NCBI GenBank assembly: GCA_051294905.1
Contig: CM119371.1
Span: 22,446,001 to 22,510,000, forward strand
Direction: 5' to 3'
DNA from: Botryllus schlosseri
Taxonomy: Eukaryota
DNA length: 64,000 nucleotides
Shown piece after piece: positions 1-53,483 of the stretch. Numbering within the stretch: the first letter of the stretch is position 1; every line of letters starts with the position of its first letter. The position numbers and the translations under genes are program-made. Below the pieces are notes generated by a model. The model worked only from the letters and a program-made list of their open reading frames with translations, searched no databases and was not told the DNA's origin.

Positions 1-1250
1 ATCGGTGTGTTGCTCGTCTTCGCTCCAGCGGAGTCCGAAAATAAATGTGGTTAATTTTCGCGAGCCTCGATGCCGAGATTTGTGCTTCGACGGCCAGTGC
101 AGCAACACAACTGAACTCGGAGATGTGGCGTTATCTTTTTCTTGGTAAGGAGCGGAATCCCTCTTCAGTACTCTGAATTTCGAAATGAATGAATTATTTC
201 AAGCGCGGGTATACGGCAGGAGAAACGGGACCTTCGCATTAATCAGTAACCAAGAAGTAGCGCTTGGTTTTAAAAAGGTTGTTGATCCTTGCCGTATAGT
301 TTATTTGTTTATGACTACCAACAATAGAGAGAAATGTGTCAAGGAGAAAAATGTGTCAGTGTTGCTTCTATGTATGCCGTTATGAGGTTCACCGACATAA
401 GATCAATAACATATTTAATCACAATTTAGTAGCCAGAGATACCACAAGATAGCGACACAGGGTAAACTGAAAAGACAGCGAGGAGTTGAATATACTTGAA
501 TAGTCTTTCAAACAAACCTACATATATTTGCAAAAGAACATGCTAATTAGAGGCATGTACATCGCACAGTGCACACTCAATGAAAAGTGCCATAAGATAT
601 CACAAAAAGTACACGCAGTATAATAAGGGAGTGGGAATGTGTCGGTATAGGTGAAGTCGATATGTCAGATTTCTGTCCGGTGATATCAGCCGCATAGCAG
701 TATTCATTCAGTAGAATCTGCTTATATTTTGTCTTGAATGTGAACAATGAATAGTTGAAAATGCTGTACGGCTGTCGCATTGCCCGTGAAATAGGGATTT
801 ATAGTTGTGGTCGATCATACTCGAAAGAGCGTGGCGTTCACTGGTAATTCCTACTGATCATAATTGGACGATGAGGAATCAAGTGTACTTGTACTTATGC
901 ACTAATGAGTATACAGTAAAATTCGAGTGTGTTATCGAACGCTGGTGTAGCCTATATATAACAATTCAATCTCGAACTTCGGAATATCATACACATCCAG
1001 GGGTTGAATAACTCGTTGTTCCTAACAGCACCGTGGTCATAATTCATGCTTCTTCGTCGTTCGACAGACCTGATCCGGTTCAAAACGGCTAATTCGAATC
1101 TCTCGCCCTCACAAATAGTTAGAATTGATTTCGCATCATATATTGACCATTGCTACATTCTCGACCGAAATGTAAATTTCGGAACTTCATAGTTTGAATC
1201 GTAATTTGAATCGGGTGTCTGGTCGTCGGTGGGATAGCCCATCGAGTTGC

Positions 1251-1322
1251 GCTGTGATCGTATAGTGGTTAGTACTTCACGTTGTGGCCGTGATAACCTA
1301 GGTTCGAATCCTGGTCACAGCA
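1251..1322 (+). tRNA. tRNA-His(GUG), copy 1
   Basis: 72-nt cloverleaf GCTGTGA...TCACAGC-A. Anticodon arm TCACG-TTGTGGC-CGTGA, T-loop TTCGAAT (one G-U in the T stem), TTTT Pol III terminator just downstream. Matches the eukaryotic tRNA-His pattern. Confidence 0.92.
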
Positions 1323-2437
1323 CGTTTTGTACTATCGTTGCGCAATATGCCAGTAACGATGGTGGGACGACGACGTCTACTACGACCGCGTATACAAATC
1401 TGACATCGGCAACGGCTGAGACGAGATGACCCGATGATGGGGGAAGATTTCCTTTATGAAAAATTTGATATTTTATGTACATATTTGAATAAACATCACT
1501 AAAACGGTATGAAGCCTGATTTTATTTCTTGCGAAAGTGGTTCTCAACCGGGATACCTCTTTCACTGAACAGGAGTGCCGCGAGAAAATGAGGTGAAGAG
1601 GTTTGCTGTCGACATATAGCAAAAATTTAGGACATCCAAATTCTGCGTAGCATTTGGGAAGCTCATGACTAAGAAGAAGGTGATCACCGGCCGAGATGGT
1701 GTGATTACAGGACCCATGTGATCAATTGCGACTTGCGAGCATGATCGCTTTTGAATCACGCGATTACGATTACGATCAAATCGAAACTCGAAGTAGTCAA
1801 TTGCGATAACGATTACATTGAAAAGTCAGGGATGTCCCTGGGAAAAGTACTCAGGAAAAACAAATCCAGTGCACAACTTTTTAGCTCACGATTTTCGAAC
1901 GATTTTCATCCGAACATGGTGTAAGCCAGGGGCGGGCAACTTCTCCAGCCGGCGGGCCGGATATATAGGAAAATTAAGTAATTGGCGGGCCGTATTGACG
2001 AATCGATACATTATTCGCCCATTTATCCTCATATACTGTACAATGAATAATTCGTATTTAGTGAATGTATTTCAACGACAGCAATGTCACCTCAAATCCA
2101 TTTCTCGCCAATGTGGATTTGAGAACAGCAATGTCGCACAGGCGCCGCCATGTCTACTTCTCTCTGATCAATCAACACACGGTGCAATCATAGCGTCCTA
2201 TATGGTGTGGATACAAGCAAATCTCACAGCTCTGTGAAATTGTCTACGTCACACTTTCCATTTGGTCAAATGCAATTTGACGGTAATTATTGACCGACTT
2301 GCCGAGTATTAAATTTGATAAAATTGGTATCAATCGAAAGCTATACCGTGGTAGGCTACTGATTGCGAAAATATCGATTATATTCTGCTCGTAGTCCTGG
2401 ATCCCCCCAAAACCAGCTTCAAATGTTGCATTGTAAC

Positions 2438-2804
2438 TAGGCTTACCATACGTCCTCTTTTAAGAGGATTTGTCCTCTTTTTTGACTTTTTTGAAAGTGT
2501 CCTCGGAGGACGCCCTTTTGTCCTCTTTTTTGAGATTTTGTCCTCTTTTTTGAAAATTTAGGTCAGATTTAGAGGAAATTGCGAGTGATATGCCGCAAAT
2601 TAGCGCAGAAGTGAAGCTCCGGCGGGTATTTCGGAGGGAAAAGTGGTGATTTCAGCTCTGAGCGAGAAGAAGACCTTTTTTTTTTTTTTTTTTTTTAGTC
2701 ATCCACCTGGCAATGTGGAGTGAAAAACGTGATTTCCAGTTTTGCATCTCTGAAATTTCTGAAAAAGTGTCCTCTTTTTTCATTTCCGAAATATGGTAAG
2801 CCTA
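2438..2804. mobile_element. hAT-type MITE (TAGGCTTACCATA TIR, GTCCTC subterminal repeats)
   Basis: TIRs TAGGCTTACCATA/TATGGTAAGCCTA; perfect 8-bp TSD ATTGTAAC. Confidence 0.9.
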
Positions 2805-4534
2805 ATTGTAACGGAGTTTGGTATCGTGATGCAACCATGCCGTCTTGGAGCAGGTGAGAAGCAGCGTAAACCGCAAGCGTATTGGCCATTGTTGCGCAAC
2901 CGATTTAGCATTCACACTCTCGCCATGGAAAACTGAATGGGATAGAACGGTAACTGCATGGCCTGTCAATCATTTACGGTCGGATGATAGTGAGCATGAT
3001 GCAAGGTCGCGCTAGTTACAAGACCTTGGCAAAGTCGGCATTGAGAAAGTTTCTGTTGTCTTTGCCGATCGGTTGTAGCATTTGACTTTATATCTGTATG
3101 TTTCGGAGATCTATATTGGTGCTTATTTACAGCTATCGAATATTGGAAATGCCTGCAAACAGTTGTGCCGTCCCTGGTTATAATACTGTTGGGAAAATAG
3201 TAATTGGGATCTGTGTTTTCATCATTATTATTTTAATTTCATGAGGTACACGGCTTACTCATTTACACAGTGAGCCTATGTCTATTGAAATTATGGCCTC
3301 GCACGTTAGTGGCGATGTTTAAGAATGATACGATATTATTCACAAAATCAAACGACAGGCTTCTCTCTGCCAAATTTTTACTTGAGCTCGTGGAAAGGAT
3401 AATTTATAAGGCCTATACTGGAATAAAGCCGCCTCAGCCAGAGTCATTAGTGTCTGCCATTATTTCTGAAAGGGAGAGTGATATTTTAGAATATATGGCT
3501 GATTTTACTTTTGAGAAAGGCGATTCGAAAATTCAATGACCAGTTAGACCAGGGGTGGGCAAACTACGGTTGCGGCCCGCAACACCGTTTTGTGCGGCCC
3601 GCGAGAGTCTCAAGAAACTTGTTCTCGAAGAAGCTAGTTAGTAAATTTCAGAAATAAAGGAAATCAAATAACGGAAGCCAGGGTATATGTGGTGATTTGA
3701 AGGGAAACCCTTGATCATAAATGATACCGCAGCGTTTCACAATGTTTGCAACTTCAAAATTGGTGGCATGAAGCGTACAATGTAGTTTTAGTGAATCTGG
3801 AAAAAACACTAACCTTACAGTAGCCTATATTGTAATTCAGCGCCAGTGTCCTTAAATAGTTTCTAATCTGGTATATTTTCAGATTTGACTAACATGCCCT
3901 ATCCACACTGCTTACTGTCTCTCTGCGATGCTAACGATTGACATCTCATTGCAAATATGTGATTGCAGTGTCGTCAAGAAATGTTATTACAAGAAGGACA
4001 GTTTGATTGCAATGCCTACCACAGTTAAGGGATACAACAGTAGCCTATATCACCACTATCACCACCATGCAGTCTTGCGGCATTGTTGACTGCTACTTAT
4101 ATTTAGGCATGCAATCCTTCAATGTCTCATCTGTTGAATAAATTATAAACTCCCAACAGTCATGTGTGGTATTGTATATATTTATCAGCCATTTGCTAGA
4201 TGGTATTCAGTTATGCAGAGCTATCCGGGCACAACTGGAAGTGAGCTGATTAGTGCATGAAAACATCAGGGAGACCAAAGTATGAACCCAGTTAGAATGA
4301 AAGATCTCCTCGTCGCCATGACCCTTTCATATCCAGCAAATGGGTTAGGTGACAGTCTTGGAGGTTCTTCATCATCGGATTTTGTGATCTGCTTACACGG
4401 TCCGTGGCGTTGTGTGGCTGGGCACGGGCAGTGATCATCTGTGATGCAATAATCTTGACCTGAGTGAAATTGTTTGTCTCTAGCTGCACCTTGATTGCTA
4501 CTTAGTAACAGTACAGCACAAATATTCCTACATG

Positions 4535-4933
4535 TAGGGTTACCATATATTTTGAAATCGGGAAGGAGGACACTTTGACCAAATCAGTACAGTTGGTTGA
4601 TCAATACTGAAAACAGCCGATTTCGCAATTTTTTGCTGTAAAATTTGGCGATTTTAATAAAAAATTAAAAAAATGGTCATCACTTTCGTTCGACTACCGA
4701 TTTACGCACTTTTTACTTAAAATTACTGGTGTTGACTAAAAAAAGGTCGTCACTTCTGCTCGAGCCTCCGTATTAGCTATTAGCGTCATTTATTCCCATT
4801 TTACCTCGGACACTGTCATTTATCTTAGCTTTAAAAGCTGTAAAGGAGGACGAATTGCCAAAAAGGAGGATATTTAGGCATCCTCGGGGGACATTTTCAA
4901 AAACCTAAAAAAGGAGGACGTATGGTAACCCTA
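4535..4933. mobile_element. hAT-type MITE, related to 2438-2804
   Basis: TIRs TAGGGTTACCATA/TATGGTAACCCTA; perfect 8-bp TSD CCTACATG; GAGGAC repeats. Confidence 0.9.
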
Positions 4934-6397
4934 CCTACATGTCAAGAAAACCTCGTAGGAAATTGACAGACTGACCAAGATATACCTTAAGAGTTAGACT
5001 GTGGCGATTACAGCTATATCAATATGGGGTAAAGGGGGAAAAATAGTATCAACTTGAATGGTCAGCATCCATGATGATCATCTATTGTGGTCATTGCGGT
5101 AATCCTTGGTCTGAATACCAGTACAGTTATGCAGTGGTATGCGAGAAAATAGAAGTGCCTATCACAATTTTAAACGCAAGAATTCTTCAACTACCTCACT
5201 TTGTGGTGAAATGACTATGAATTACAACACTTTCTTCTTCTTGACAATGGGTCCTTCATAGATATAGTCCAAACATTATTAGTGCTATGCGTGGAGGAGG
5301 AACCGGCATTTGACCCTTCAATTTTCTTCGGCAAACCCCATCCTGTAATGATAGGACAAAAATGATCAGAGTTGGCATAAACTGGTCACATTTTTGATAT
5401 ATATATATATAGGCCTATATAAATTGGTATAGAATCTATAATACGCTTCAACCATTTAGCCTACAGCATTGCAAAAAGCGTGGGAGCTGTTTGCAATTTA
5501 TAAACTTGCATTTGAAAGTAGCTCAAAATTTTTTGTAGTTCATTTATTTGTAGATGCCTGCTGGCCTTAAAATAGTAAATTCAAAACTGACCTAATGTTA
5601 GGTTTAATATGACCATTGACCAGCTTCCTCCAAATCAAGATATAAAGCTCTCCTTTCTTCTCATATTACAGGCTATCCAGCCACCTATTGAACAGTGATT
5701 GAGCCACAAATCAGCCTTCAACTTGATTATAAATTTGACCTACCTTGAGTATGAGATAGGTCCCTTTTTAATCGTGCAACATAAAAAGAGTTTTTTATCG
5801 CATGCGTTTCTGGACGCTTGCTCTTTCATTGGTGGGGAAGAAAATGATGTGGACTTTTGAGGCAAACTGGGGCAAGGTATCGGTCCCAACTTCAGCCGAC
5901 GTTTCCCAGAGGCCATAGAAGCACCTGCCGCTATATAATATCTTCTGGCCGGAAATATCGATCACATATTTCGGCTCTTGAAAACACAATAAATGGTCCA
6001 TAAAATAAACATAGCCTGATGCCAGTAACAAAGTATCAGTCACAGGATTGCATCAAATAAATATGAATATCTAGCTTTGATATCACCGGCACTGGTTGAA
6101 TTTCTATTTTTCTCACTAGCGACTAGTATTACAACCAGGGACTGCACAACTGTTTGCAGGCATTTCCAATATTCGATAGCTGTAAATAAGCACCAATACA
6201 GACCTGCAAAACATATAAAGATATAAGGTCAAATGCTACAACCGATCGGCAACACCCAACAGAAATCTCTTAATTCCAACTTTGCCAACGTTTTGTGACT
6301 GGCGCGACTTTGCTTCATGGTCACTATCATCCGACCGTAAATGATTGACAGGCCACGCAGTTACCGTTCTATCCCATTCAGTTTTCCACGCTCTCAC

Positions 6398-6987
6398 TAT
6401 AGAAATTAAACATGGAACGGCAACGACCGATTTTGCAGCTTCGTTCCGCTTCGCCGAGGCTGGAGTGGAGAGTGCTTTTGCGTAAGCGACTGTAGGATTT
6501 CTGGCAATCCAAAAGCTATCTTCCCGAGCACAGAAATTATTGAATATGGTCTTGATCGAAAGCCACTGCTGCACCGATTCCGAAAATATAAAGTAAAATA
6601 ATGATCAGGCACTGATCCACCTAGAATCCGTCCTCTAAGTCGAAATATCGGCATTGTTCGAACAATCGGAGAGTCGCAACGGGTCATTGTTATGGTCATT
6701 GTGTTGCGGTTACCCGATAGTTCTGAACAATGCCGATATTTCAGACTTGGAGGACAGATTCTAGGTGGATCAGTGCCTGATCATTATTTAAATTTATATT
6801 TTCGGAATCAGTGCAACAGTAGCTTTCGATCAAGACCAGTTTCAATAATTTCTGCGCTCGGGAAGATAGCTTTTGGATTGCCAGAAATCCTACAGTCGCC
6901 TACGCAAAACAATTCTCCTCTCCAGCCTCTGCGAAGCGGAACGAAGCTGCAAAATCGGTCGTTGCCGTTCCATGTTTAATTTCTATA
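6398..6987. mobile_element. Palindromic foldback MITE with 7-bp TSD
   Basis: Arms of about 280 bp (TATAGAAATTAAACATGGAACGGCAACGACC and its reverse complement) flanked by CTCTCAC on both sides. This explains the mirrored ORFs 6406-6699 and 6692-6979. Confidence 0.85.
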
Positions 6988-7396
6988 CTCTCACTCTCGT
7001 GCGCACTTGATCCTGAGCTGCTCAGACGGCATATCGTTGCGTCACAATACCAAACTCCGTTACAATGCCACATTCGAGGCTAATTTTGACGGGTCCAGAA
7101 CGACGAGCAGAATAAAAGGTATATTTTCGAAATCAGTACCATGATAGCTTTCGATTGATAGCCTACTTGTTTTATCAAATTTAATGCCCGACAAGCTGGT
7201 TCAAAATTACCGTCAAATTGCCTTTGGCCAAATGAAAAGTGCGACGTAGACCAATCTCACTGAGCCGTGAGGTTTTCTAGTGTCCATACCATATAGACCA
7301 CTATGGTGAAATCCTTAATTACGATTTCGAGGCGTTCGATTAGCCCGGTAGGCCTACCCCAAATTTACCAAGATATCAATTCATTAGGGTTGGTCA

Positions 7397-7630
7397 GGTG
7401 GCGAGATAGCGTAGTGATAGCCTATATTCCACAGCTACAGCACCAATGGGTTATGGGTTCGAGTCCAGAACTCCTACTTAAGAGTTGGAGGTTTATCTAG
7501 GCTTCTCCTCGCCATCTTATTCGCATAAGCGGTGTCTTACAAAAGCCTGGAAGTGTGCCGTGGTACAAGTCGGTGGTTACGGAAACAAATATAAGAAATA
7601 TGGGCCTGGTGTAAATGACCATTGTAGTCG
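7397..7630 (+). mobile_element. tRNA-derived SINE-like segment carried inside the CAGGGGCGGGCAAC MITE
   Basis: A-box-like TAGCGTAGTGA and B-box GGTTCGAGTCC. The body (GGAGGTTT...AAAAGCC...GTGCCGTGGTACAAGTCGG) is shared with 42232-42600 and 57190-57425. Confidence 0.6.
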
Positions 7631-7941
7631 TCAAACACAATGATTACCACGAACAACATTAGTGTTGAGTAGCCTACATCGTAAATGCCAATAATGCAAG
7701 CCTTCTCGCTTCGAAGAGCTTACGCGTAATCTCCACTTTCGTACACTGTTCACACACTATATAAAAACATACAGTAACTGAAATTTGACGTAGTTAGCAA
7801 GTAGTGGGGGATATCGGCAGACTAGGGCCGCTACGGCCACGTTATCATGTAAGACGGGAAACTGTCCGGGGGCCGGACAAAATCACGTCGCGGGCCGTAT
7901 GTTGCTGGCCTCTGGTGTAGGCGGATAGTATCTACATTTAA

Positions 7942-8537
7942 CACTTATAGATCAGTTAGGTGGGGGTAAAATTGACCCCAGACGAACAAATATGTGAGCG
8001 ATATTTTCATGTGCGGTCGGATTGCTCTTGCCAGACATGTAATCATAAATGATGTTATATACACTATCAATCGGAATAAAGCGCATTAGCTGATTATCGC
8101 TAATACCTCGCCGCTATGAGGTATTGAGTGGGCATGGGTCAGATTTTGAAGGTATAGTGGGCAGACTAAGTCATTATCTCCTCATTGTGATCGAATCGAT
8201 TTCGACTGTTTATGGCTCTTTCGCATTGCTTCTGTCACATGGAGTAAACTAGGCATTGCGCAAGCTTCTTTGTTGGTTCTTTGTTGTTATAATTAACTGA
8301 TGGGTTTGTTTGACCCCACCTCACCGTTCGTGTAATGGTGTTACGCCTCAGGGGGAACTTTGAAACATGTAGACAGTAGGGTTGAAAAACGGAAGATTCG
8401 TCGTTATAACGTCATGCAGAAGGTTATTAGACAGTTGTGTAACGAAATTAGTAAGAAAAAAAGCATATTAACTGAAAGGGTCAATTTGACAACACCTAAC
8501 CAATCGTGTAATGGTCTCCCACCTAACTGGTCTGGGG
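7942..8537. mobile_element. piggyBac-like non-autonomous element
   Basis: Flanked by TTAA on both sides; imperfect inverted ends AGATCAGTTAGGTGGG / CCCACCTAACTGGTCT. Confidence 0.5.
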
Positions 8538-8947
8538 TTAAAATTTAAATATGCAGTAAAGAATTGCAAAATAAAGATTGCTGGCGGTCTCAAGTGCGCC
8601 CATAGGAGAATAAGACAAAGTTAACATGAAATTCGGCCATTACGAGCCTATTTCCAAAGTTGAACATACGAACACCCACAATTTGCCTAATATGGATATT
8701 GCAGCAAACAATACGTTCATATTGTCAAATTTATTCCACTGTAAGATTTTCGACTGGCTCTCTTCAGCAGTGAACGCCAGTAAATGAGGTTAACCAAGTT
8801 CGAAATATAGAAAGAATTTTGTCGCTGTGACGTAATAATGACAAATTGACAAGTACACAAGTCGCGAACGGCCGTAAACAGCGCACGGTCACGGCACAGC
8901 ACACACTAAATCAGCTGTAAAACAGCCGAATGACAAAACAACGCTAA

Positions 8948-9905
8948 TGGAAGATTCCCAGCGTGTAGAGATGTACCTTCTGGCGGCAGAGGATTGGCCT
9001 TTGCAGCTTTATAATGGTTGATTCAAGGACCTTTAAATGAAAAAGAGAACGACCACGAGCAACTATGGAAAACTGATTGTTACTGTAATGTTTTGCACAC
9101 TCTGGGTGTTTCAATAGGTGCTCTCCGATGGCATAATTACATGCTGTTGGTCATAATCACTCGTGGTAACTAGGGACTGTGATGATGAAGCAGACATGTC
9201 ATCACCCTGCGAATTCCTAATTTGACGTGGGACGTGTTGACGAATTCTTTGTAGCAAGCGTTAAGATGTGCGACCGACATACCGACTGTCGCATCGGCAC
9301 AAATATTGGTAAATTATGTTACTCTGATCAATCGCAGGAAGCACATCCTTACGCGTTGCTGGTAGTACAGATTTCATAGTAAAAATGACACGGGGTTCAA
9401 CTTGTGGGAAATTATGACTCACGGAGGACTTAATCTGTTTTTCAAACCTGTTGCAAGCTGTGCCTATCCACGGAAGATGCAAATAAACTGGGCACCTTCT
9501 CGGTCCATACGGCTTATCTTTGTGGAAATCTTGTATTTTACGTTCAATAGTTACTTTGACAATATGCTCAGGATAGCCATTGGCAAGGAAGATGGATTTG
9601 ATAGTATTTATTTCAAAATCCAGTTTGTCATTACTGCAAATCATCAGGGCCCTGTGTACCAGGGTTCTTATCAAATTGATTTTACGTTTCACAGGGCAAA
9701 ACGAATCCCATGAAAGATACTGACCACTGAATGTAGTCTTACGGTAGACAGATGTAACAAAATTATTGTTCATCTTCTCAACAAAGACATCCACAAACGG
9801 TATCGAATTGTTATTCTCTTTTTCAACAGTAAACTTTTGAGAAGGGTGAAGGTTATTTAATTTGGCCAGAAACAAATCACATTGAGCTTTATTATCAAAC
9901 ATGAC
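8948..9905 (-). mobile_element. Penelope-like retroelement 3' fragment (RT C-terminus plus GIY-YIG endonuclease), 5' truncated
   Basis: ORF 9261-9902 has IPFVDVFV, TSVYRKTTFSGQYL, NGYP and NIIYQYLCRCDSRYVGRTS. After a premature stop it continues with RLLQRIRQHVP and later VLESTIIKLQRPILCRQK. Confidence 0.88.
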
Positions 9906-10061
9906 ACGTTTGCTAATATTATCAATAATCCAATCAATAGTCCAATGACTAAGGTCGATTCGAGTGCGGAAATCAGATAGACAAGAGTGCGGCCTCTATA
10001 CCTGATGTAAAAAATCTTTTGTCATGATAGTTTTTAGCGCAACTGGCATTATCGGCAAAAT

Positions 10062-10639
10062 CAGGGGCGGGCAACTTCTCCTGTCGTTTGGCCTGATATG
10101 GGAAAATGAAGTAGGCCTATACTTGGCGGGCCGTATTACAGAATCGATACATTAATTGCGTAATTATCCACCTATACAAGGAATTAATCGTATTTGATGT
10201 AAACTTCAAGTTCAAAGCATCAGAGACCAATAACAATATTTTTTGAATTATTAACCTAACCTATCGCCTACTTCAATAGGTGTTGAGGTCAATCAGACAT
10301 GTTTGGCCGATTACAGTTGTCAGCCGGTTCTTTGAACTCTGGCTGCATGCCGGGTGTAGTGAGGACTGCACGTGAACATCAGTTGTATTTACACTGGATC
10401 ACAGCCTAGCCTTTCTAATGTTTATGCCATGGTCGAAAATGTTTGGCCGGAAATGTATGTGGACCCGAACAGATCAAGTAAAGTTTCTGAACCATCTTTC
10501 TCAGATTGGCAAACTTGGATTCATTTTGCGACGCATAAAATTTGTCAGTACTTTCAGATTAGAGTGTCACTTTCAGGGCAGACACTCGCTGCGGGCCACT
10601 CAAAATCCCGTCGCGGGCCGTATGTTGCCCCCCCCCCTG
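10062..10639. mobile_element. hAT-type MITE, CAGGGGCGGGCAAC family
   Basis: Starts CAGGGGCGGGCAACTTCTC and ends TATGTTGCCCCCCCCCCTG; both ends match family copies. Confidence 0.65.
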
Positions 10640-10939
10640 GGCTAAATGCTTATCAATGGCAGAGTTCATAGCCAAGGCCTGATTGTATTCTAGCAACCGT
10701 ATATCAGTTACAATTGCATTTTCACGTATATGTATTGTGTGCTATCTAATAACACTCGGAATATGTTGTGTGATGCGTTCCTGTAAGCGTTGAGCTGTTC
10801 TACCAGCCGCGCAGTGTCAGGTCAGTACAAGCAATTTTTTCTCAGGCTACATATTGACCACTAGCTGTGCTCGAGGTTTGCCTGTCTGTACGTCATGTTG
10901 GAATCCGAGTACAATGGAAGCTAAGTAGTTCCACTAGTG

Positions 10940-11800
10940 CAGGGGCGGGCAACATGCGGCCCGCGAAGGGATTTTGTCCGGCCCGCAGACAGTTTTCCGT
11001 GTATTAGGCCTACATGATAATGTGACCCGCGGCCCCAGGCTTACGAGATTCCCCACTACTTGCTGGCATACGTCAAATTTTAGTGACCGTTTGTTTTTAT
11101 ACACAGGTATGCGCACTGCGCAGTGCGCGAGGGTGGTGCTTATGCGTAAGTTCGTCGAAGCGAGAAGACTTGCATTATCGGCATTTGACGATGTATACTC
11201 AACCTCATGCCATTTGTGGTAATCATAGTGTTTGTCGACTACAATGGCCATTTACACCAGGTCGATATTTCTTATTTTTGATTCCGTAACAGTCGACGGC
11301 ACACTCCTAGGCTTTTGTAATACACCGCTTATGCCAGGGGTCGCCAACTCGAAACGGACCACTTTCAAATTTCGTAGAGGCCGCGGGCCGCATGAATTCA
11401 AAATCGAGATAATATAGGTCACACAGTTGAACAATCACGCTATCTCGTCACCTACTAAACCCCAATGAATTGATATCTTGGTAAATTTGGGGTACCGGGC
11501 TTATCGAACGCCTTGAAATCTTAATTAAAGATTGCACCATGTGTTGATTGATCAGAGAACAGCAGACATGGTGGCGCCTGTATGGCAATGCTGTTCTCAA
11601 ATCCGCATTGTCTTCGTCATTATTGGCGAGAAATGGCTTTGAAGTTACATTGCTGTCGTTAAAATACATTCATTAAATACGATTTATTCCTCCTATATGT
11701 GGATAAATGGGCGACTAATTTATCGATTCAGCAATCCGGCCCGCCAAGTATTCAATTTTCCTATATCCGGCCCGCCGACTGGAGAAGTTGCCCGCCCCTG
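10940..11800. mobile_element. hAT-type MITE, CAGGGGCGGGCAAC family, compact copy
   Basis: Perfect 14-bp TIRs CAGGGGCGGGCAAC/GTTGCCCGCCCCTG; flanks CACTAGTG / CGACTAGTG. Confidence 0.85.
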
Positions 11801-11963
11801 CGACTAGTGCATGTATGGTTCTTAACCTTGCGTCCAGCGCTCCCCAAGGGGCGCTGGCGATTTTGAAGGGGGGGCGGGGGTGATATGGGGGGCGCTGGGC
11901 TCAGGAGGCGATATGGGGGGCGCTGGAGAAAAATAGCTTCACAGTAGATGATATGGTAGTAGG

Positions 11964-13056
11964 CAGAGGTGGTCAAAGTAGTCAAGAAATCTACTCAAGT
12001 AAAAGTAGAAGTAGCGACGAAAAAATCCACTCAAGTACGAGTAGAAGTACTTTTTCCATAAGCCACCTAAAACTACTTGAAGTAGAAGTAGAATTGACTG
12101 ACTTCAAATCTACTCAAGTAAGTAAGTAGTTTTGAAAACGATCGTAATTCGTTAGCATGGATTGTCAAAAGGTGCAAATTGAGCTATGCGAAAGGTGCCG
12201 AGCTTCATTCATATTGATGCAGACCAGGAGGTATCCGATTTTCGACAGCATAAGCATTCGTCCTCATCATGGGATGAAAATGCTAGTATTGATATGGAAA
12301 TGCGATACTCATCCTCTGTACACGTTTTAGAAAATATCATGGTGTCGCGCCCTCCCGCATATTATAAGGCCCGCCGTTTAGTCAAAGAGCAATACGGAGA
12401 AGTTGTATCGGATACGGTGTAAACACCTTGCGCGATTAGTAAACGTTCATAAAAAATATGGTGGATCGTAAAAATGCCATATATTTCGTAGCTTTATTTC
12501 CGAAATTAAAGGCATTACTACACTAGATTTTATATTTCAACATGTATGTTATCCATACAAAAGAACCGATATTAATATGATCAGTAAATGCTAGATTGCG
12601 AAACATCAGTTTGATGATGAGCCATATATACCGTGATGAAATATTTCATATGGGCGAAGGGCGACAATGTGGTGTGAACGGAACCACGCCAACCCGCTAC
12701 CTAAATTATATTCACCGATACTTTCGTGAAATCGTACTGGTTAGTGGTTACTTCGCATCCACAGCGCGCGAAGCGCGGCGAAAATTCTGGGCTTTACTCA
12801 ACTTTTATGAAAATTAGATGTTGATAATCCGTGAAAACAGCCCGGAATTCTTCAGCCTATCTTCCTGATTGGAGGATTAAACTACTTCTACTTGACAAAC
12901 TGAAAATAGCGAAAAGTAAGTAAGTAGATCAAAAAATATTACGAAGTAGAAGTAGAAGTAGTGAAAATCAGAACTACTTGAGTAAGTACCAGAAGTAGAG
13001 GAAAACTACTTGAGTACTTCTAAAAAGTAGAAGTACTTCGTTACCGACCACCTCTG
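11964..13056. mobile_element. Tol2-like hAT non-autonomous element
   Basis: TIRs CAGAGGTGGTC/GACCACCTCTG, AAGTAG/AAGTAC subterminal repeats, perfect 8-bp TSD GTAGTAGG. Confidence 0.88.
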
Positions 13057-13488
13057 GTAGTAGGGCATATCCTTAATGAGTATTCAGAGCGAATTAACAC
13101 TGAAAACGTCGTTATATATAGCCTACAAAGGACATATAGGTTTAATTGTCCATAGGCGCCTAAATGACTGATGGCACCGAATGTTCCTGTCTTGGCAATA
13201 TGAACCTCAGAAGACGAATTTCATCTGGCAGGTAAAATTTATATGCCAGTGAAGAAACACCAATTTGAAATCGTGTGCGTCTTTTAGTTTAGTACGATTG
13301 GGCGACAGGGATATATAGAACTAGATATCACTGTTTGGCGATATCCCTTTTGGGCGATTCTATATTTTTGGATATAGCAGACAGGAGGTCACGAAATAAC
13401 ATCATGCAACGAAGTCATACCAACGGGTCCGCCCACCCGATTATGTTTAGTTATTAGTTACGGGCCCTACAGTTTCCAAGACACCTCA

Positions 13489-13672
13489 CAATGTTCCCTC
13501 TACGTTTTGACGAGTCTGCGCACACTCACCAACTCACTGCGCAGACCATTGGACAACAGTGCGTAACGACTAAAAAAAGTCATAACTTCGGATTTGTTGT
13601 GCGCAACGTAGATTTTCTGTGCGCAGAGACCGTGTCAGCACTGCGCACGTGTGCAACTTAGGGGGAACATTG
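13489..13672. mobile_element. Small MITE (CAATGTTCCC TIR, TGCGCA repeats)
   Basis: TIRs CAATGTTCCC/GGGAACATTG with flanking CACCTCA duplication. Same family as 59224-60693. Confidence 0.75.
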
Positions 13673-15072
13673 CACCTCACTCAGCTCTGCCAGTAAATCT
13701 GGTAACGTGAGCAGAGAGGACAAGAAAGTGATAGCAATATATATGCAATTCCCGATCTTATTGACCGATGTTATCATGAATTATCGAAAATTTTCGTGCT
13801 TAGTACTGGCTCGGTAAACAGGTCAGCTGATTTCGTGGCAAAAGCAAACAACGTGATGGGGGGCGGTCGGTTTGTCACCCTATGGGAGCCCAAGACCCAA
13901 GTTTTTTGGGGGGCCTGACGAAGTGTCATTTCGTTCCTGCCAACGGGTATACGCACGAAGATGCATAATTATTATTGAGGAGCCCTACCTTTTCAATCAC
14001 ACATCACTCAGCTCTACCGGTAAATCTGTTTACGTGAGCAGAGAGAGGATAAAAATTGATATCAATATATATGCAATTCCCGATCATATTGACCAATTCA
14101 ATCAGTAATTCATGAATTTTTTCGCGCTTCGCGCGTCTAGGCGCGAACAGCTGGCTCAGTGAATGGACACCCAATGTAGATGACCAGTATCAGCAAATAA
14201 CGGATAACCGAGGGGGGGTCTTGGGGTGAAGCCACCCAGAAGTTTGGTTTATCACCCTATGGGGACCCAAGACCAACTATTTTGGGGGGGGGGCTGAGGA
14301 AGTGCTGTTACGGCCCTGGTAACGAATTAATTGTACCTACGGGCACGCCCCAATATGTTTAATTATTAATTACGTGCCCTATATTTTCCAATACAACAGC
14401 TCACTCAGCGCTACTGGTATTTCTGATTACGTGGGCAGAGAGGATAAAAAGTTTATAGCGACATATATATGTAATTACCACCTATTCATTCATGCATTAT
14501 AGAAAATTTTGGCACCTAGGTCGACCAGGCCACACAAACGTTGCTGACCATCGAAATCACGCTACGGGGTTCTTGGGAGCGAAGCCCTCAGAAGTTTGGT
14601 TTATCACGCTATGGGTGCGCAAGGCAATCGTTTTAGGGGGGTTGACGAAGTGCGGTTACGGACCTCATTGTTTTTATTACATTCCTTACAATATGAGGTT
14701 GGGGGCGCTGGAGCACGATAATCTTCGAAAGGGGGCGCTGGAGGAAAAAAGGTTAAGAACCACTGCACTAGTGCATGGTCGACAATGCAGCGGAACATAG
14801 CGACTTATCATTTTCGACCAGGTCGTACCAAAAACTACCAGGTATACGTTTATTCGAAAATATTATAGTCGTGTCCACCGATGACTCTTCGATCTGCTGC
14901 GTTAAAATCTCAGTCCAGACATCTCGTTTGGCGTATACCAAAACCGGTAGTAATCTGGGTATAATTGACCGTGAATGAATATATCGGTCTGCGTAATTTG
15001 TTTCAAGACTGGCTTAGGTAGAACTTGATTGGGGTCTCTATTACAGTTTCTGTCGTAACGCATTAGCTATAC

Positions 15073-16368
15073 CAGGGGTCACCAACCTTTTTGCAACCGA
15101 GGGCTACTTTTGCGTAATGATTGAAGCGGGGGGGCTACTATTTACTCCCGCCGTTTACCCGCACCACACTGAATTTCCGCTTTGATATTCATAGCACTGG
15201 GCATGACTGGACATCATGTTATCTGTTTCTATAGCAGTCAGTGAGAAGCCTGGCATTGTATGATATCAACTAGTGCGCTGTACTCTGGTATTTAACTTGA
15301 CACTGCAATTCTGAGTGACTGTTCCAGATGTGCATTAATTAAGCGTGTTTTGTGTCTGTTTTTGATGAAGTTCGTGTCCGAAAAGGCTGATTCACAACGA
15401 TAAGTTGAACCATAGACGCTTGCAACCTTCATAGTTGCTGCGCATACACCACTGTACTTTTCCGTATCAACAATGCACCAAATGTTTGCTGCAGACTGAG
15501 GTGGGGGTCATTTTGCATGCAGTGTTACAATTTCAATCTCCAACTGTTCAGCATCCGGAAATGACAAGATTTCATTATACCGGACAGCAGCAACGATTAC
15601 AGAAAGTTAGAAACATAGTATACAGAAACAAGCTGTGCCAAAAGGCTGATTCACAACGATAAGTTGAACCATAGACGCTTGCAACCTTCATAGTTGCTGC
15701 GCATACACCACTGTACTTTTCCGTATCAACAATGCACCAAATGTTTGCTGCAGACTGAGGTGGGGGTCATTTTGCATGCAGTGTTACAATTTCAATCTCC
15801 AACTGTTCAGCATCCGGAAATGACAAGATTTCATTATACCGGACAGCAGCAACGATTACAGAAAGTTAGAAACATAGTATACAGAAACAAGCTGTGCCAA
15901 AAGATGCAATACGTAATGGGTATACAGATATATAAAAATCTGCTAGTAGGCCTACTTCACGGCTATCTGACTCCGAATACTAATATTGTTTACTATACTT
16001 CGGCATTTTCCTGGTCGTCGAGCTATAATGGAACCCCCCACCATTTCAAAAAGACCGTGAACGGCATTCCGTCATGCCGCCTGTATAGGCAATGCGCCGT
16101 ATCTTGAATTTCTGGTGATTCTATCAAATACATCTATATATTACTAATTGTAATTGAAGATATTTCAAGTGTTTATAAGTTACATTAGTGTGTTTTAAAC
16201 AAGAATAGCTGAATCGACCAATCTATATATCTAAAAGCTCACTGGTAATAATCTGACGAATATTGGTAAATGCTGCTATTCCACCTATTTTCAGAACGGG
16301 CTCGTGGGCTACTCATCTAGTCCTCGCGGGCTACCTGGTGCCCGCGGGCACCGGGTTGGTGACCCCTG
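15073..16368 (-). mobile_element. hAT (Buster/Charlie-type) deletion derivative with transposase C-terminal remnant
   Basis: 15-bp TIRs CAGGGGTCACCAACC; perfect TSD AGCTATAC. Minus strand about 15240-15435 reads VYGSTYRCESAFSDTNFIKNRHKTRL...QCQASH*, a hAT dimerization-domain signature. Confidence 0.88.
15381..15903. repeat. Perfect 259-bp tandem duplication
   Basis: Two identical units starting at 15381 and 15640, with AAAAG microhomology at the junction. ORFs 15435 and 15694 begin identically. Confidence 0.93.
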
Positions 16369-16762
16369 AGCTATACTGTTTAACGACATCCCCGAACTCT
16401 CATATCCAAGATGTTTCCTTCAATTTTAACAGTGCCCAAAAACGTGTACATTTGCCGGTTTGAAACGATACTGTTGTATAATAATGAATATAAATAATAT
16501 ATAGTGGAATAATACCATAACCTACGAATAACCAGTTTCACAGCTTTATTGAGACTGGCATGTGAATCACAGACTAAATCGCTGTTTGAATTTAGGATAC
16601 ACTGCATGACACAAATCACAACGAGCGGATGGTTTATTTACACCAGTCTCTCTAGGTGTCGCCCTACTTTGAAATGAATGTTATTGATCGCGTGATTTGT
16701 TTGTGGACAAGGGTAATTAATTCCATCGGTTACCTCGTCGATGGGATAACATATCGCGCTGC

Positions 16763-17286
16763 GCTGTGATCGTATAGTGGTTAGTAGGGCTGGGCACAAT
16801 GATTCGAGTACTCGAATCTGAATCGAGTATTAATTTTAATGATTCGAGTCGAGTAGTAAAAGACGATTTTTTCGAGTAATGAAGTTACACGCTCCTCTCC
16901 ACTCAAAGGTAATTTATCGATGAGAATTATAGTTTCGATACTATTTTCCACTGAGAAAACCCTGAAACCTTGATTGGCCGTATCACAACGTACGAAACAT
17001 ATAGTACAAAGTTACGCGCGTTAGTGAAAATAACACTTTTCCGAAGTCATGTGATGGATAACCAGCATTATATTTTCTGTGGTTGCATAAAAGGTGCTCA
17101 TTTGATACTTGTCATATTACATTCTGTTATGACGTCATAATGAGCGATACTCGAATACTCGACTCGACTCGAAGCATTTTACGTGATTCAGAATCGAATC
17201 ACTCAGGTACTCGATTTTGCCCAGCCCTAGTGGTTAGTACCTCACGTTGTGGCCGTGATAACCCAGGTTCGAATCCTGGTCACAGC
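16763..17286 (+). pseudogene. tRNA-His(GUG) copy 2, split by a MITE
   Basis: 5' part GCTGTGATCGTATAGTGGTTAG (16763-16784). The sequence resumes at 17230 with GTGGTTAGTACCTCACGTTGTGGCCGTGA...TCACAGC. Confidence 0.92.
16785..17229. mobile_element. hAT-type MITE inserted in the tRNA-His D arm
   Basis: TIRs TAGGGCTGGGCA/TGCCCAGCCCTA; perfect 8-bp TSD GTGGTTAG; TCGAGTA/TCGAAT subterminal repeats. Confidence 0.93.
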
Positions 17287-18698
17287 TTATTTTTACGACT
17301 GTTACGAATTGCAAATGAGTTTCGCGGGGAAAACATATCACGTTAATACGACATTTCTTGACGACCGTTTGCTTTGACAATTTTATTCTGGCGGCCGCGA
17401 TTTGAATGTATACTAATATTTCGATGATAGTTTTTTTTTAGCACATGTTATCGTGAACGCATTATATCGCGCATTCGAACAGACATCGAATTACCGCGAC
17501 GCTGGATATTGACCGGCCAGATGTAAACCGACATCTAAGAACTAAACATATAAATCGACTGGAATCGTTCTGCGGATACCCTATATTTCGCAACGCTAGT
17601 AGGAATGAAATCATTCTATTAATGTGCCTAATGTATCCTCATTGCCGTCATTGTACAATGTACATAATGTGTCCGTGCAAGTGGCATAGCAATCTCAACA
17701 GTAGAAGTAAATGTAGCAAGCATTTGGTTCGGCCAGGCAGTTGTGAGTATCATCATCATCCTCATCATCATAAACATCATCTAATAAAATTTCGCCGGTT
17801 GGAAGACCACAAGATTGCTATACAGGACAAACTGAAAAGATAAGAAGAACTTTCAATCAAACATCCACAAGCAGATATTTTGAAAAGACCATTCAAATCG
17901 GAGTCATACACATTAAAGAGGGCTCGCCGAATGAAGAGTACCAGAGGAAAACATGAATATGACAAGAAATAAGCATATAGAGAGTAGAGACTCGTTTGCA
18001 TCGGTAGACGCGTAGGTGAAATCGATATATCAGGTCGAAGTCCGTTTATTTCAACAGTAGACTCATATTCATTTTAGTGCTAATTGATGTCTAGAGAAGT
18101 CAAATATCAAGCCAATATATCTTTATATCAGTTATATGTATATTGTAATCTATAGGACTACCAGTAGGCCTACAGCTAATTTGGTTGTGCAAGTGCAGGT
18201 ATTCCCGGCTTGCTTTTGCTTTTTACTATTGAACAATTGAACATGCTCGGCGACTGTCTGATTACCAGGGATATAGTGTTCTCCAGTCGATATCCGTCAT
18301 TCTTCACTAATCGTTGCGTTTGCTTATAATTCGTGCTGATTATATGTTAATTGAACAATGACGACTCAAGTGTCTTGTACTTATGCAGTAAAGCAGACAC
18401 AGTAACTCAAGTGTGATTGTGAACGCTTGTGTGTATATAACAATTTAATCGGGGACTTCGGAATAACTTGTACATTGATGGGCTGAGTCACCCATTGCTC
18501 CTGTCAACACTGTTGTCGTGATTATTGCTGTTTCGTTTCTCAGATCTGTTTTGAAACGCCTCATTCGAATCGTTCGGCAGCAACAAGTGGAATTGATTTC
18601 GAAACTACGACTACATTCTTGACTGAACGTGCCGATTTCCAGCCGGCTTTTATGATCTCATGAGCCGATGTTGTTGGTGGGATAGCCCATCGAGTTGC

Positions 18699-18768
18699 GC
18701 TGCGATCGTACGGTGGTTACTACCTATCGTTGTTTCCGGGAAAACCCGGTTCGATCCTGGTCACAGCA
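18699..18768 (+). pseudogene. Degenerate tRNA-His copy 3
   Basis: GCTGCGATCGTACGGTGGTTAC...GGTTCGATCCTGGTCACAGCA; anticodon arm is disrupted; upstream flank is the same as copy 1. Confidence 0.85.
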
Positions 18769-19398
18769 CGTTTTTTCCTCATGTTCATTTAGGAAGCTAT
18801 ATCGTCGACGACTCCTTTCTATCAAACCTATCTGTAAACTTGATCACGCATATGCAATATATTCCAGTACCAATACCTTTATCCATATTCGTTTATTACC
18901 TTGGAAAAATTTTCGCGCATGGCGCGATAAGTAAACAAATACACACTCATTTTGAAGACAATATTATTAGCGAGGCTGGTGCGTAGTTATAGCCAATAGG
19001 CATCAACAGCTATGTCATGCGTTCACCGGGAATCACGTGATGTCGAACTTGGGTTACATATAGAAAGAGCGCGCGTGTGTGTGGGTGTCACTGACTCGTA
19101 TGCACAAAGGGTAGTGATGGAACTGCCCGTAGAAAGCTTGAGGTTGTATTAATTCACGCTATGTTGGGTCCAAAAGCATCGCTTATTGTGGGCTAACAAA
19201 TGAGTGTTATGGCCCTGCTTGAAATCAACGCTTGGTTTCTTACTCATCAAATATTTGCCTCGCCTCAAGGCCTACTAGGCCATGCCCGCCTCCAAATCTG
19301 TTTTCTGGCTGAGCCGCCGTTTTACGTATGTGTGATACATCGTATACGCTTCAAACACGTAAATCTCCATTACGGGTTAAATTCACGGAACGGACAGT

Positions 19399-20076
19399 TT
19401 AAAGTACCGAAGGTTTCCTAAAACCAAATAATTCGAAATCGAGTTGATAACGCTTGTATATTTCTTCAATAGTTTTGGTAGAAACTGACGCTAAGTAGCC
19501 ATTCACTTTCTCCTGGTCTGTTTGCCTTGACGATTCGTAATTTGCAGGAAACGTAATGTTGTCCATGCTCACGAGCTTCATGAACGCAGCCATGTCGTCG
19601 TTGATTGTTTCGACATGTAAGATAAAGTCATACCGTATCGTGCATGGTAGACACAGTTCATGGTAAAAACTCCAATGACGATCACGTTCCTTATCCATGG
19701 CTGCGTACCCCAGAAATTCACCGAACGTCGCTGATATGTTACGGCGGCTGTCGCCTGATATAATCGTATGAATCATTCTAGAGAAATTTGTAAATTCTCT
19801 ATTCCACGGATATTCTCTTTCGAGTTTGGACCTGTAGGCGGACAAAAGTCTGTAAAGAGGATCGCGGACAATTATTAGTCTTTTGTAAGTCTTTAATTTT
19901 TCAATTATTTCCCTTGAGTTCCGTAGCTTTCTCAAATTTAAGTTGGCGTTGGTTAATTGGACAGCGAATCCCGACTCGACTTTTGACAGGTCTGATGCAT
20001 TCACCAACTTTTCGGCTGTAACGAGTACTTTCTTCATACTCGAACTTGCACACTTTGGTATCTCGCAGAGAATGAA
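19399..20076 (-). CDS. Carbohydrate sulfotransferase (CHST/HNK-1ST-like, Sulfotransfer_2) paralog A, exon 3
   Basis: Acceptor ctacag|TTC. Encodes FILCEIPKCASSSMKK (5'-PSB PAPS motif), IVRDPLYRLLSAY (3'-PB motif), HW...LCLPCTIRYDFI, and ends YQLDFELFGF. Confidence 0.9.
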   Translation of the reverse strand, partial: FILCEIPKCASSSMKKVLVTAEKLVNASDLSKVESGFAVQLTNANLNLRKLRNSREIIEKLKTYKRLIIVRDPLYRLLSAYRSKLEREYPWNREFTNFSRMIHTIISGDSRRNISATFGEFLGYAAMDKERDRHWSFYHELCLPCTIRYDFILHVETINDDMAAFMKLVSMDNITFPANYESSRQTDQEKVNGYLASVSTKTIEEIYKRYQLDFELFGFRKPSVL

Positions 20077-20539
20077 CTGTAGATAGAATTACCCGTTACA
20101 TAAGTTTGGCCATATACGTTGAACGCGGTAAAAACAAGAAGTCACCCCGTGAATCACCAGATCAGAAATAGTGAATCCAACTTGTTCGACATAAGTCCTT
20201 CCTTTACTACAAAATTTTATGTATTTTACGACTCAACAAAATTCGTAGTCTCTCGACCCTGGTTCGACCCTATACACATGACTCGGTGATCCAGTTCTGG
20301 GGCAACGGAATTGAGTCCACCAGCGATGTGCGGTCAGGCGAGGAGGGTGAAACTGTGCCTCGCCATTAGTCAGGGTAAGTAGATAAAAGCTTTGAAAACG
20401 TTTACCGGAATCTTTGGGATATGTCCCATGAGTTTTCTGCTAACGACTCTTGTAGTATCAATGACCATCGGTGCAATAATATTATTTGTATAATAAATAT
20501 TGAATTTAACGCAATTTAGCCGTCATCGATGTCACTCAC

Positions 20540-28172: not shown

Positions 28173-28244
28173 GCTGTGATCGTATAGTGGTTAGTACCTC
28201 ACGTTGTGGCCGTGATAACCCAGGTTCGAATCCTGGTCACAGCA
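28173..28244 (+). tRNA. tRNA-His(GUG), copy 4 (consensus, intact)
   Basis: Intact cloverleaf, anticodon GTG, followed by TTTT. Confidence 0.95.
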
Positions 28245-29975
28245 CGTTTTACTGTTTTCGCTCATGTTATAATCAACGTCTGCAGGCTATATCACGCATT
28301 CCAATCGACATTGAATTACTCTGACGCTCGTTATTGCCTGGCCGGATATAAGGCTACGTAGAGGAACGAGACATATGCCTAGCAACTTGGTTGGAAGCAT
28401 TTTGTGTGACGCCCTACATTTCGCAACGATAGAAAAAGAGGTATTCTATTAAGGTGCCCCATATATGCCCATTTCTCCATATAGCCTCATCGTGTATATT
28501 GTGTCCGTGCAAACTGCATAGCAATACCAACAATACAAAGAAATGTAAGAAAAAATTGCTGCGGCCAGGCATTTATGAGTAGGTTTACCACATTTTGGGA
28601 TCCGAAAATAACGAGACTTTTCAAAAATTCTGAAAGCTCTGGTATACTGGAAAAAGAAAACTGGTGATTTTAGAAATTATTCGACCAATAGCACTGTGTT
28701 GCGTGAAAAAATGGTCATCTTTTCAACTCGACTCCTGAATTACCCGACTCTACCCCAGTTCAGCGGTGTTGACTAAAAAACGTTATCTTTTCCATATCAT
28801 CTCCCATATTACCCCTCCCGTCGTATTTTTCGTTGTTTGTCTTGGCACCACTGATGTTCGCCGCGTCATAGTCGAGTTTTTGATCGCGTTTCAATACTTT
28901 ATCTAGATAACGAGGACAAATTCCCCCAAAAGAGGACATTCCGGCGTCATCCGAGGACACTTTCCATTTATTGACAAAAGACGACAAATCTTATTAAAAA
29001 ACCCTAATATAATATAAGTTCACTCGTTCAAAGCACGATTAGATTGCTACGCGGGGCAAACTAGAAAGACAAGGCGTATTTGAAACCATTTGGAATAGTC
29101 TGTCAATCAAACATCCACCTCTATCTGCAGATATAGATATGAAGGAACATGCAAATAAAAGCCATACCCAATAAACAGTGCAAACCGAGTGAAAAGCACC
29201 AGATGCTAACATAAATATGTCAAGCAATATGGAAAGAAACCGACTGAGTCGGTAGGCGAAGTCGATATATCATGTCGAGGTCCGGTAATCTCGACCGCAG
29301 ACTCATATTCATTCAATAGAATCTGCATGTATTTTGTCTTAAAACGTGGGCATGCTCGGCGACTTAAGGATTGCCACTTGCCAGCAAGATAGTGCTCTAC
29401 AGTCATGGTCCGTTATACTTGATAGAGACTTGCGTTCGCTTGTATTTACTGCTGATCGATTGATAATTGAACAATGGCGACTCAAGTGTCTTGAACTTAT
29501 GCTGTTGTACTTGCGCTCGAGAGCAGATACATTGATTCGAGTGTGATTGCGAACGCTTGTGTATATATAAGTATTCAATCGAAGGCTTCGAAATAACTTG
29601 TACAATGTCCGGTACATTGATGGGTTGAGTAACTTTTCACACCGTTCGACATAAACAATGTTGCGAATTGATTTCTAATTGAAATCTGGACATCGCCGAT
29701 TAAACGCACAATTGTTCAAACTTGGAATAGTGGAATCTCATTGTTGTAGATACTGCCGCTACCCTGAAACCGTGGAGTAGGCCTACTTTATGGTCAGTTG
29801 TCCAAAATATGGTTTTCATCGGAAATTTCTTAAATATAAATCTGCTCAATGAAAGTGAATTTTTGTATTGCCGATTAACTCCTTGATTTTCAAATAAACT
29901 CTCATGTCGTTGAATTTGTGTTATCGTCGATTTCTCGGGTAACCCATTCCTCGGCTGGGTGGCCCATCTGGTTGC

Positions 29976-53388: not shown

Positions 53389-53483
53389 CATTTTTACGAC
53401 TGCGTTTAGCACGGCAGACTTTCCACGAATCAAACACCACATTTCTTATCAGCTTTTCCCTTTGACAATTTTTTTCTTACGGT

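Follow-up and report, generated by a model that had tools for sequence, protein, structure and literature searches.

Why do copies of the same repeat, within a 64-kb stretch of the genome of Botryllus schlosseri, differ time after time by five or six letters placed at a TA dinucleotide, so that TA in one copy reads TAGGCTA, TAGCCTA or TAGGCCTA (TA-GGCC-TA) in another? The stretch, hereinafter the window, corresponds to positions 22446001-22510000 of contig CM119371.1 (G000:C1:22446001-22510000) in an assembly of 495.5 Mb and 219 contigs; it has a G+C content of 41% and is rich in repeats, in hAT-type MITEs (miniature inverted-repeat transposable elements) and in tRNA-His-like units. According to the data reported here, we consider it moderately probable that these micro-insertions are excision footprints (hereinafter scars) of a cut-and-paste transposon of the ITm (Tc1/mariner/pogo) group having the termini 5'-GGC...GCC-3', the source being most likely of the pogo type rather than Tc1 or mariner proper.

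The window was compared with itself by BLAST, and then the same was done with the 264 kb formed by the window and twenty random 10-kb stretches (L001-L020) from six contigs; the latter set is referred to as the sample, and the figures given for the sample all refer to it. The addition of 14 targeted loci brings the total to about 360 kb. Expectations in the window were obtained with Markov models of orders 0-4, while the genome-wide figures are pattern counts, each set against a reversed-word control.

The initial annotation had claimed micro-insertions at eight positions, and this was borne out; the three words do stand there. Six of the eight show a clean or nearly clean absence of exactly five or six letters in paralogs. 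At 948-954 (TA-GCC-TA) exactly five letters are absent from both paralogs (window positions about 18230-18779 and 29041), and at 2352-2358 (TA-GGC-TA) three out of four paralogs are gapped by five or six letters (catgg-----tactga). The TA-GGCC-TA insertion at 7349-7356 faces cccggTA------cccc at about 11490 and is also missing from the copy in L017; the TA-GCC-TA insertion at 7670-7676 faces GAGTA---TACATCG and GAGT-----GCATCG, i.e., TATA and TG. At 10112-10119 (TA-GGCC-TA) all three paralogs are gapped, and at 11005-11012 a TA-GGCC-TA insertion is accompanied by two further letters, the eight being absent from both paralogs (ccgtct--------TAcatg). The alignments of the remaining two, both TA-GCC-TA, are ambiguous, but compatible with an insertion: for 7159-7165 the four paralogs read ATTGATACC... 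with the gap placed beside the motif, and for 7418-7424 four to five columns are gapped in two of the four paralogs (L017 and L012). At 948, 2352, 7349, 10112 and other sites, as well as in the pogo B copies L029 and L030 described below, a single TA in the copy that lacks the insertion corresponds to two TAs enclosing the added letters.

Extending the comparison to the sample, 44 motifs are covered by paralogs; every paralog is gapped at six of them and part of the paralogs at 11, while at 27 no paralog has a gap, this last group including both inherited scars and chance words such as those at 59936 and 60488. The indels between repeat copies point in the same direction: there are 72 five-letter insertions, 12 of which duplicate TA, and nine of these 12 consist of GGC or GCC. 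This alignment of repeat families, suggested by the initial annotation as a check, therefore returned insertions that are anchored on TA and derived with respect to the paralogs.

The analysis of a single repeat subfamily revealed how a scar can spread. The scar TTTTGTA[GGCTA]TATATAACG, which in the window stands at 13119-13125 (as TA-GCC-TA), is absent from older paralogs and is carried genome-wide by 335 near-identical copies (181 + 154), with a control count of 18. The subfamily, also found at L001 70, is young and very uniform. The presence of one scar in 335 copies implies that scars are inherited when repeats are amplified and, in turn, that genome-wide counts overstate the number of independent events; a scar can also mark a repeat subfamily, as a derived character that its members have in common.

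Another check proposed by the initial annotation, the counting of the words, also agreed with its claim. In the window TAGGCTA occurs four times, TAGCCTA 13 and TAGGCCTA 10, with flanks that differ in 27 cases out of 27, whereas the expectations are 2.0-4.2, 2.3-5.7 and 0.5-1.3, respectively. Both in the window and in the 200 kb taken elsewhere, TAGCCTA/TAGGCTA is the TA-N3-TA word that most exceeds its expectation, and TAGGCCTA is the TA-N4-TA word that does so. When the two strands are merged, the seven-mers in the sample number 66, where 18.9 would be expected, and the eight-mers 23, where the expectation is 1.9; the enrichment persists against Markov models of orders 1-4. At the level of the whole genome, TAGGCCTA was counted 43,701 times (control 9,854), RTAGGCTAY 76,921 times on both strands (control 12,496) and GTAGGCCTAC 10,508 times (reversed control 119). 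In the 264 kb of the sample about 62 distinct sites are in excess of expectation, with a density of about 235 independent-looking sites per Mb; roughly, this would give a genome total of the order of 10^5 scars, including the copies inherited through repeat amplification, which is consistent with the pattern counts. A full-text search of the literature for TAGGCCTA matched unrelated primers and oligonucleotides only.

These figures bear on the explanation according to which the motifs are due to chance, to hitch-hiking with repeats or to an assembly artefact. The 335 copies of one scar in one repeat subfamily and the 27 ungapped motifs out of 44 speak for it; nevertheless, the 89 occurrences in the sample fall in 83 distinct sequence contexts, the enrichment holds against Markov orders 1-4, and the motifs are present in short-read contigs from the runs of other samples. 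In particular, the site 10112-10119 is spanned by the X1 contig with no differences and 3821-3827 by the X17 contig with no gaps; these contigs carry the sites unchanged, which argues that the sites are not an assembly artefact. We regard this explanation as scarcely credible. The short-read tables (four runs, window positions 1-20000) are dominated by repeat copies and have no row at the scar sites.

The flanks of the motifs and the set of forms allowed are informative about the way in which they originated. In the sample the letter preceding TAGGCCTA is a purine in 21 out of 23 cases and the letter following it is a pyrimidine in 23 out of 23; for the three forms together, R..Y flanks are found in 65 out of 89 cases, compared to 30% of all the TA dinucleotides. 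As for the forms, related words are not enriched in the sample: TAGGGTA and TACCCTA were found 16 times in all (20.3 expected), TAGCTA 50 times (46.7 expected), TACCTA and TAGGTA 104 times (101.7 expected), TAGGGCCCTA never, and TAGGGCCTA and TAGGCCCTA once each. The word TAGGCGCCTA, considered as a possible 3+3 scar (six occurrences, 0.1 expected), was rejected, all six belonging to one repeat family. Hence, the enriched set consists only of the three forms predicted by GGC overhangs of three nucleotides; GGG-containing, two-nucleotide, 1+1 and 3+3 forms are not part of it. The excess of the three-letter forms is about twice that of the four-letter form (about 47 and 21, respectively), and a ratio of about 2:1 fits a three-nucleotide overhang.

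In the case of Sleeping Beauty and mariner, according to the part of PMC7827188 that deals with them, the element is nicked three nucleotides inside its ends, so that the donor flanks are left with 3' overhangs of three nucleotides, whose letters are kept between the duplicated TAs once the ends have been joined. By analogy with these two systems, the element that we infer would insert at R-TA-Y and duplicate the TA. Its excision would cut the non-transferred strand three nucleotides inside each end, so that each flank would keep TA and a 3' GGC overhang. The joining of fully overlapping ends, with a central G:G mismatch, would give TA-GGC-TA or TA-GCC-TA, while TA-GGCC-TA would arise if the GC at the termini, which is self-complementary, paired and was then filled in. 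Scars might then build up, the element itself being scarce, lost or just outside the sequences sampled. The GGC-overhang model put forward in the initial annotation is thus in agreement with the exact set of three forms, with the R-TA-Y flanks and with the CCG parallel described below; the part of it that did not find a counterpart is the element, no TA|GGC-ended element having been retrieved from about 360 kb or by three genome-wide pattern searches.

The search for the transposase gave a picture that only partly matches the attribution to Tc1/mariner made in the initial annotation. Pogo-type DDE_1 domains (PF03184) have 72 matches genome-wide, many with long open frames, and are the only ITm transposases detected in the genome; mariner (PF01359) and Tc1 (PF13358) transposases have zero matches genome-wide, so that "Tc1/mariner" is valid only in the wide sense that includes pogo. 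Among the resident elements, pogo A (L027 1702-4597) ends in TA|GGGTAGAGTGGGG, pogo B (L029 1274-4195) in TA|GGGAGACCGGGG, pogo C (L031 1116-3957) in TA|GGGGAGAGTGGG and pogo F (L034 96-2624, G000:C1:32380095-32382623) in TA|CCGTCAATCGGGG, the last having an intact open reading frame (ORF) of 548 aa at L034 265-1908; pogo J (L033, about 1208-4129) shows TA|CCGTAAACCGGGG within its repeat. For pogo D (L032) a single copy was not enough to establish the ends. TA duplications and intact ORFs are found in the elements of L027, L029, L031 and L034, and the outward flanks of four families are purines in eight cases out of eight, which is the same R..Y rule as that of the scars: the flanks of the scars match the insertion preference of the resident pogo elements. 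Moreover, two copies of pogo B (L029 and L030), 96% alike over the stretch compared, differ by AAGTA[GGCTA]ATTGC; therefore, scarring was active after the spread of pogo B.

Pogo F and J share the end pattern TA|CCGT.AA.C.GGGGT, and the corresponding word is enriched as well. R-TA-CCGG-TA-Y was counted 5,664 times in the genome against 1,680 in the control (3.4-fold), despite its CpG; in the sample TACCGGTA occurs 12 times, six of them within one repeat family, and a private insertion of CCGGTA at a TA is carried by a single member of the 335-copy repeat, at G000:C3:15528251. As regards the rule that a scar would repeat the end letters of its element, there is an analogous match for CCG, in that the CCG-ended pogo F and J match a second, weaker scar word.

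Several results weigh against a GGC-ended pogo-type source, starting from the absence of mariner and Tc1 transposases mentioned above. The first letters of the four readable pogo families are GGG, GGGG or CCG, not GGC. Scans for terminal inverted repeats (TIRs) of the type TAGG/TAGGC...CCTA, carried out on the 360 kb with several stringencies and spans, did not retrieve any TA|GGC...GCC|TA element, since everything that matched was a hAT-type element, a long palindrome or a pair due to chance. In the same way, about 15 nested insertions between repeat copies, comprising hAT-type elements with 8-bp duplications, one element flanked by CTAAG and others, include none with a TA duplication or TA|GGC ends. 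Genome-wide, the pattern TAGGCNAGAGTGGG, a guessed GGC variant of the inverted repeat of pogo A/C, gave 14 exact, scattered matches and no pairs; putative mini-elements of the form RTAGGC-N20-50-GCCTAY were counted 4,215 times against 3,959 in the control and are mostly two adjacent scars; and RTAGGC-N5-8-GGGGT, counted 641 times against 326, did not reveal a pogo-like terminus, its excess being largely due to scars followed by hAT ends and to an unrelated repeat. The GGG scars expected from the GGG-ended pogo families are not enriched, which may be explained by the fact that G overhangs cannot pair, and which implies that the end-letter rule is not universal. The DDE_1 loci inspected amount to about one third of the total. 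Since no TA|GGC element was found, we infer, rather than observe, the link between the letters of the scars and the ends of an element. An unexcised element was also sought in the 335-copy subfamily: four of the 100 copies listed deviate after GGC, inconsistently, and about five are expected from the control.

These results leave room for other sources. The resident pogo elements ending in GGG or GGGG might themselves be responsible, if their non-complementary G overhangs were trimmed and filled to give G(1-2)C(1-2). Such elements are resident here, have intact ORFs, duplicate TA and show R..Y flanks, and TAGGCCTA is formally compatible with TA+GG+CC+TA; however, trimming should spread the products over TAGGGCCCTA, TAGGGCCTA, TAGGCCCTA, TAGGGTA/TACCCTA, TAGCTA and TAGGTA/TACCTA, which are not enriched, and the three-letter forms outnumber the four-letter one by about 2:1, as a three-nucleotide overhang would have it. 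We therefore judge this origin unlikely.

An origin from PIF/Harbinger (PHIS) elements, which would call for an undescribed group that duplicates TA (2 bp) and excises imprecisely, appears slightly less likely still. PHIS elements are very abundant here (PF13359, 151 matches from 891 first-look candidates, many with open frames) and typically end in GGCC; the two-gene Harbinger at L009 4304-8779 ends in GGCCCGTATT; furthermore, target site duplications (TSDs) vary widely among PHIS groups, according to part of PMC4482050. On the other hand, the latter element, the one Harbinger whose ends are readable, has a TAA duplication (for six further loci, L021-L026, single copies did not suffice to establish the ends), and T[AT]A-GGCC-T[AT]A does not occur in the sample, with T at -1 in one of 23 cases and A at +1 in none of 23. 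The TSDs described for PHIS in the passages cited of PMC4482050 are TWA, AT, none, ANT, CWG and TNA, never TA, and mPing-type excision is reported as precise in the portion of PMC4561436 devoted to it. As an observation in its own right, the Harbinger of L009 harbors a Myb-like ORF and a DDE_Tnp_4 gene, and the PF13359 frames are stop-free in all but a few of the 150 candidates scored, an indication that the population is very large and has probably been active in recent times. A 4.4-kb insertion at L005 3855-8288, bounded by GCTGCGTTCATCG inverted repeats and flanked on either side by CTAAG, resembles NuwaII PHIS elements (C|TNA|G).

The window does contain elements whose first letters recall those of the scars. 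The one at 2438-2804 begins with TAGGC, those at 4535-4933 and 16785-17229 with TAGGG, and the three are flanked by perfect 8-bp duplications (ATTGTAAC, CCTACATG and GTGGTTAG, respectively) that lie outside the TA, which identifies them as hAT MITEs; accumulations of read ends are seen at 2438, 16785 and 17229, and the MITE at 16785-17229 sits inside a tRNA-His-like unit. The initial annotation had seen no full GGC-ended element in the window: this stands as far as TA|GGC ends are concerned, while the TAGGC-ended hAT MITE at 2438-2804 had been overlooked. As a source of the scars, the TAGGC-ended elements of the window were rejected as unrelated hAT MITEs with 8-bp duplications. More generally, the scars might be remnants or footprints of hAT elements with TAGGC or TAGGG inverted repeats, given that MITEs such as TAGGCTTACCATA... 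at 2438-2804 share the letters TAGGC. Yet the duplications of 2438-2804, 4535-4933, 16785-17229 and L013 5948-6376 are of 8 bp, identical in eight letters out of eight, whereas an 8-bp repeat with at least seven matching letters out of eight is missing around all the 89 motifs; hAT elements target Y-TA-R at the center of the TSD (35 of 42 with TA), whereas scars are found at R-TA-Y; and TAGGG-type words are not enriched. Consequently, a hAT origin seems to us highly implausible.

The two kinds of sequence do meet in places. The hAT elements with CAGKGST...CA inverted repeats (L001 1587-3226, L011) have an nnnTAnnn target at 35 of 42 ends in the sample, with Y-TA-R flanks, and three of the 42 ends fall on the TA of a scar; the duplication of L001 1587-3226, GCCTATAT, implies that the scar preceded the hAT insertion. 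A scar followed by three letters and a hAT end accounts for about a quarter of the RTAGGC-N5-8-GGGGT matches listed. Scars also create new C-TA sites, which are used by the Buster-type hAT elements of this genome.

Lastly, a transposon might not be involved at all, the words being the product of a sequence-specific break at R-TA-Y with stereotyped fill-in or of a self-propagating AGGCCT palindrome. In its favor, about 360 kb and the pattern searches yielded no source element, the inserted sequences are palindromes or close to it, and there is a local, if modest, clustering: 12 of the 27 window scars lie within the first 11 kb (permutation p of about 0.02 for the best 11-kb window), and three TAGGCCTA words are found inside 58 bp at G000:C1:6751360-6751417. 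However, no repair process that adds GGC at TA is known, staggered cuts by a transposase account exactly for the TA duplication and the three forms, the CCG counterpart scar has its element in the genome, and the clustering fits local hopping as well as hot spots. We hold this origin to be improbable.

A further scenario, unlikely but worth stating, is that of a "hit-and-run" TA-inserting element, or of a transposase with very few copies to act on, which would have marked about 10^5 sites, or alternatively of an undescribed, element-free break-and-fill process at R-TA-Y. If the hit-and-run scenario were true, the resident copies would be too few to appear in 360 kb, the element would be responsible for a visible share of the 5-6-bp insertions, and excision scars would represent a major, datable mutational process in a chordate genome. 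The very high insertion/excision turnover proposed in the initial annotation is suggested by the scar-to-element ratio alone.

The other occurrences of the three words in the window are less directly interpretable. A probable insertion is represented by the TA-GCC-TA words at 24586-24592 (five columns gapped in one paralog, 64% identical) and 39990-39996 (gapped in the L020 paralog). The TA-GGCC-TA word at 40228-40235 is inherited or ancestral, the L020 copy reading AAGAGGCCTACGTA without gaps; the TA-GCC-TA word at 48239-48245 is inherited in its repeat family, the L013 and L008 copies having the same word; and the neighboring TA-GGCC-TA at 48251-48258 faces TAGGCTTA and TAGTCCTA, also ungapped. 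The TAGGCTA words at 59936-59942 and 60488-60494 are probably not scars, since eight paralogs out of eight are ungapped in both cases, with TTTTAGGCCATGT for the former, which points to a point change, and TTTAGGCSNGA for the latter. For the TA-GCC-TA word at 62292-62298 the alignment is ambiguous, the one paralog (69% identical) being without a clear gap.

The TA-GCC-TA words at 3821-3827 and 4041-4047 (both with G..T flanks) and at 5457-5463 (T..C flanks) are without paralogs in the sample. Unique contexts characterize the TA-GGCC-TA words at 5410-5417 (in a TA run, A..T flanks), at 15947-15954, 18165-18172 and 29778-29785 (all with G..C flanks) and at 46208-46215 (G..T flanks), as well as TA-GGC-TA at 53149-53155 (A..C flanks) and TA-GCC-TA at 58284-58290 (G..A flanks).

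Some features of the sequences analyzed are worth reporting beside the scars. Within its 64 kb the window harbors six predicted tRNA-His(GTG) genes, together with one tRNA-like sequence whose anticodon is CTA (the set lies at 1251-1323, 28173-28245, 29976-30047, 51244-51315, 53317-53389, 56444-56516 and 56975-57048), which represent either a cluster of tRNA genes or a group of repeats derived from tRNAs. Two paralogous Sulfotransfer_2 open frames (E about 1e-39), at 19402-20088 and 30691-31410 (minus strand), are located 11 kb apart within a segmental duplication. Outside the window, L018 932-4546 (minus strand) contains an open frame of 1,205 aa with reverse transcriptase and RNase H domains that ends in an RNA 2'-phosphotransferase (Tpt1/KptA, PF01885, E 6.6e-10), an unusual passenger for a retroelement.

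If the scars are the footprints of a GGC-ended, probably pogo-type element, then the signature of one transposon family would be written across a 495-Mb genome of the chordate lineage, where it would make up nine of the 72 five-letter insertions between repeat copies. Possible uses would include the dating of repeat subfamilies, the reading of a record of the past activity and target preference of a transposon, and an estimate of the share of small indels due to excision as opposed to replication error.

Excision footprints are a textbook kind of mark; what sets this case apart is their unusual density and the clean logic of their sequence. In the parts of PMC4561436 on excision, Mariner/Stowaway elements are described as leaving the TSD together with TIR letters, PIF and mPing-type excision being precise, and the scars resemble the Stowaway/Mariner footprints catalogued genome-wide in rice (PMC4423477 and PMC4561436) in that they would be small insertions produced on a genome scale by TA-duplicating elements. 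In rice the footprints can be matched to abundant MITEs, whereas here about 10^5 scars are accompanied by no matching element in 360 kb. With respect to the Sleeping Beauty/mariner footprint (TA-C(A/T)G-TA), the letters are GGC instead of CAG, an additional four-letter form, GGCC, is common, as would be expected from the pairing of the terminal GC with itself, and the mariner and Tc1 transposase families are undetected; the two share the TA duplication that is kept, the net insertion of 5 bp and the three letters with a variable middle base (here GGC or GCC), presumably corresponding to a three-nucleotide end. Finally, as regards the pogo family, for whose member Passer footprints of 0-4 bp are given in part of PMC9976928, the resident families that could be read differ from the scars in ending with GGG, GGGG or CCG, while they duplicate TA and, like the scars, sit in R-TA-Y.

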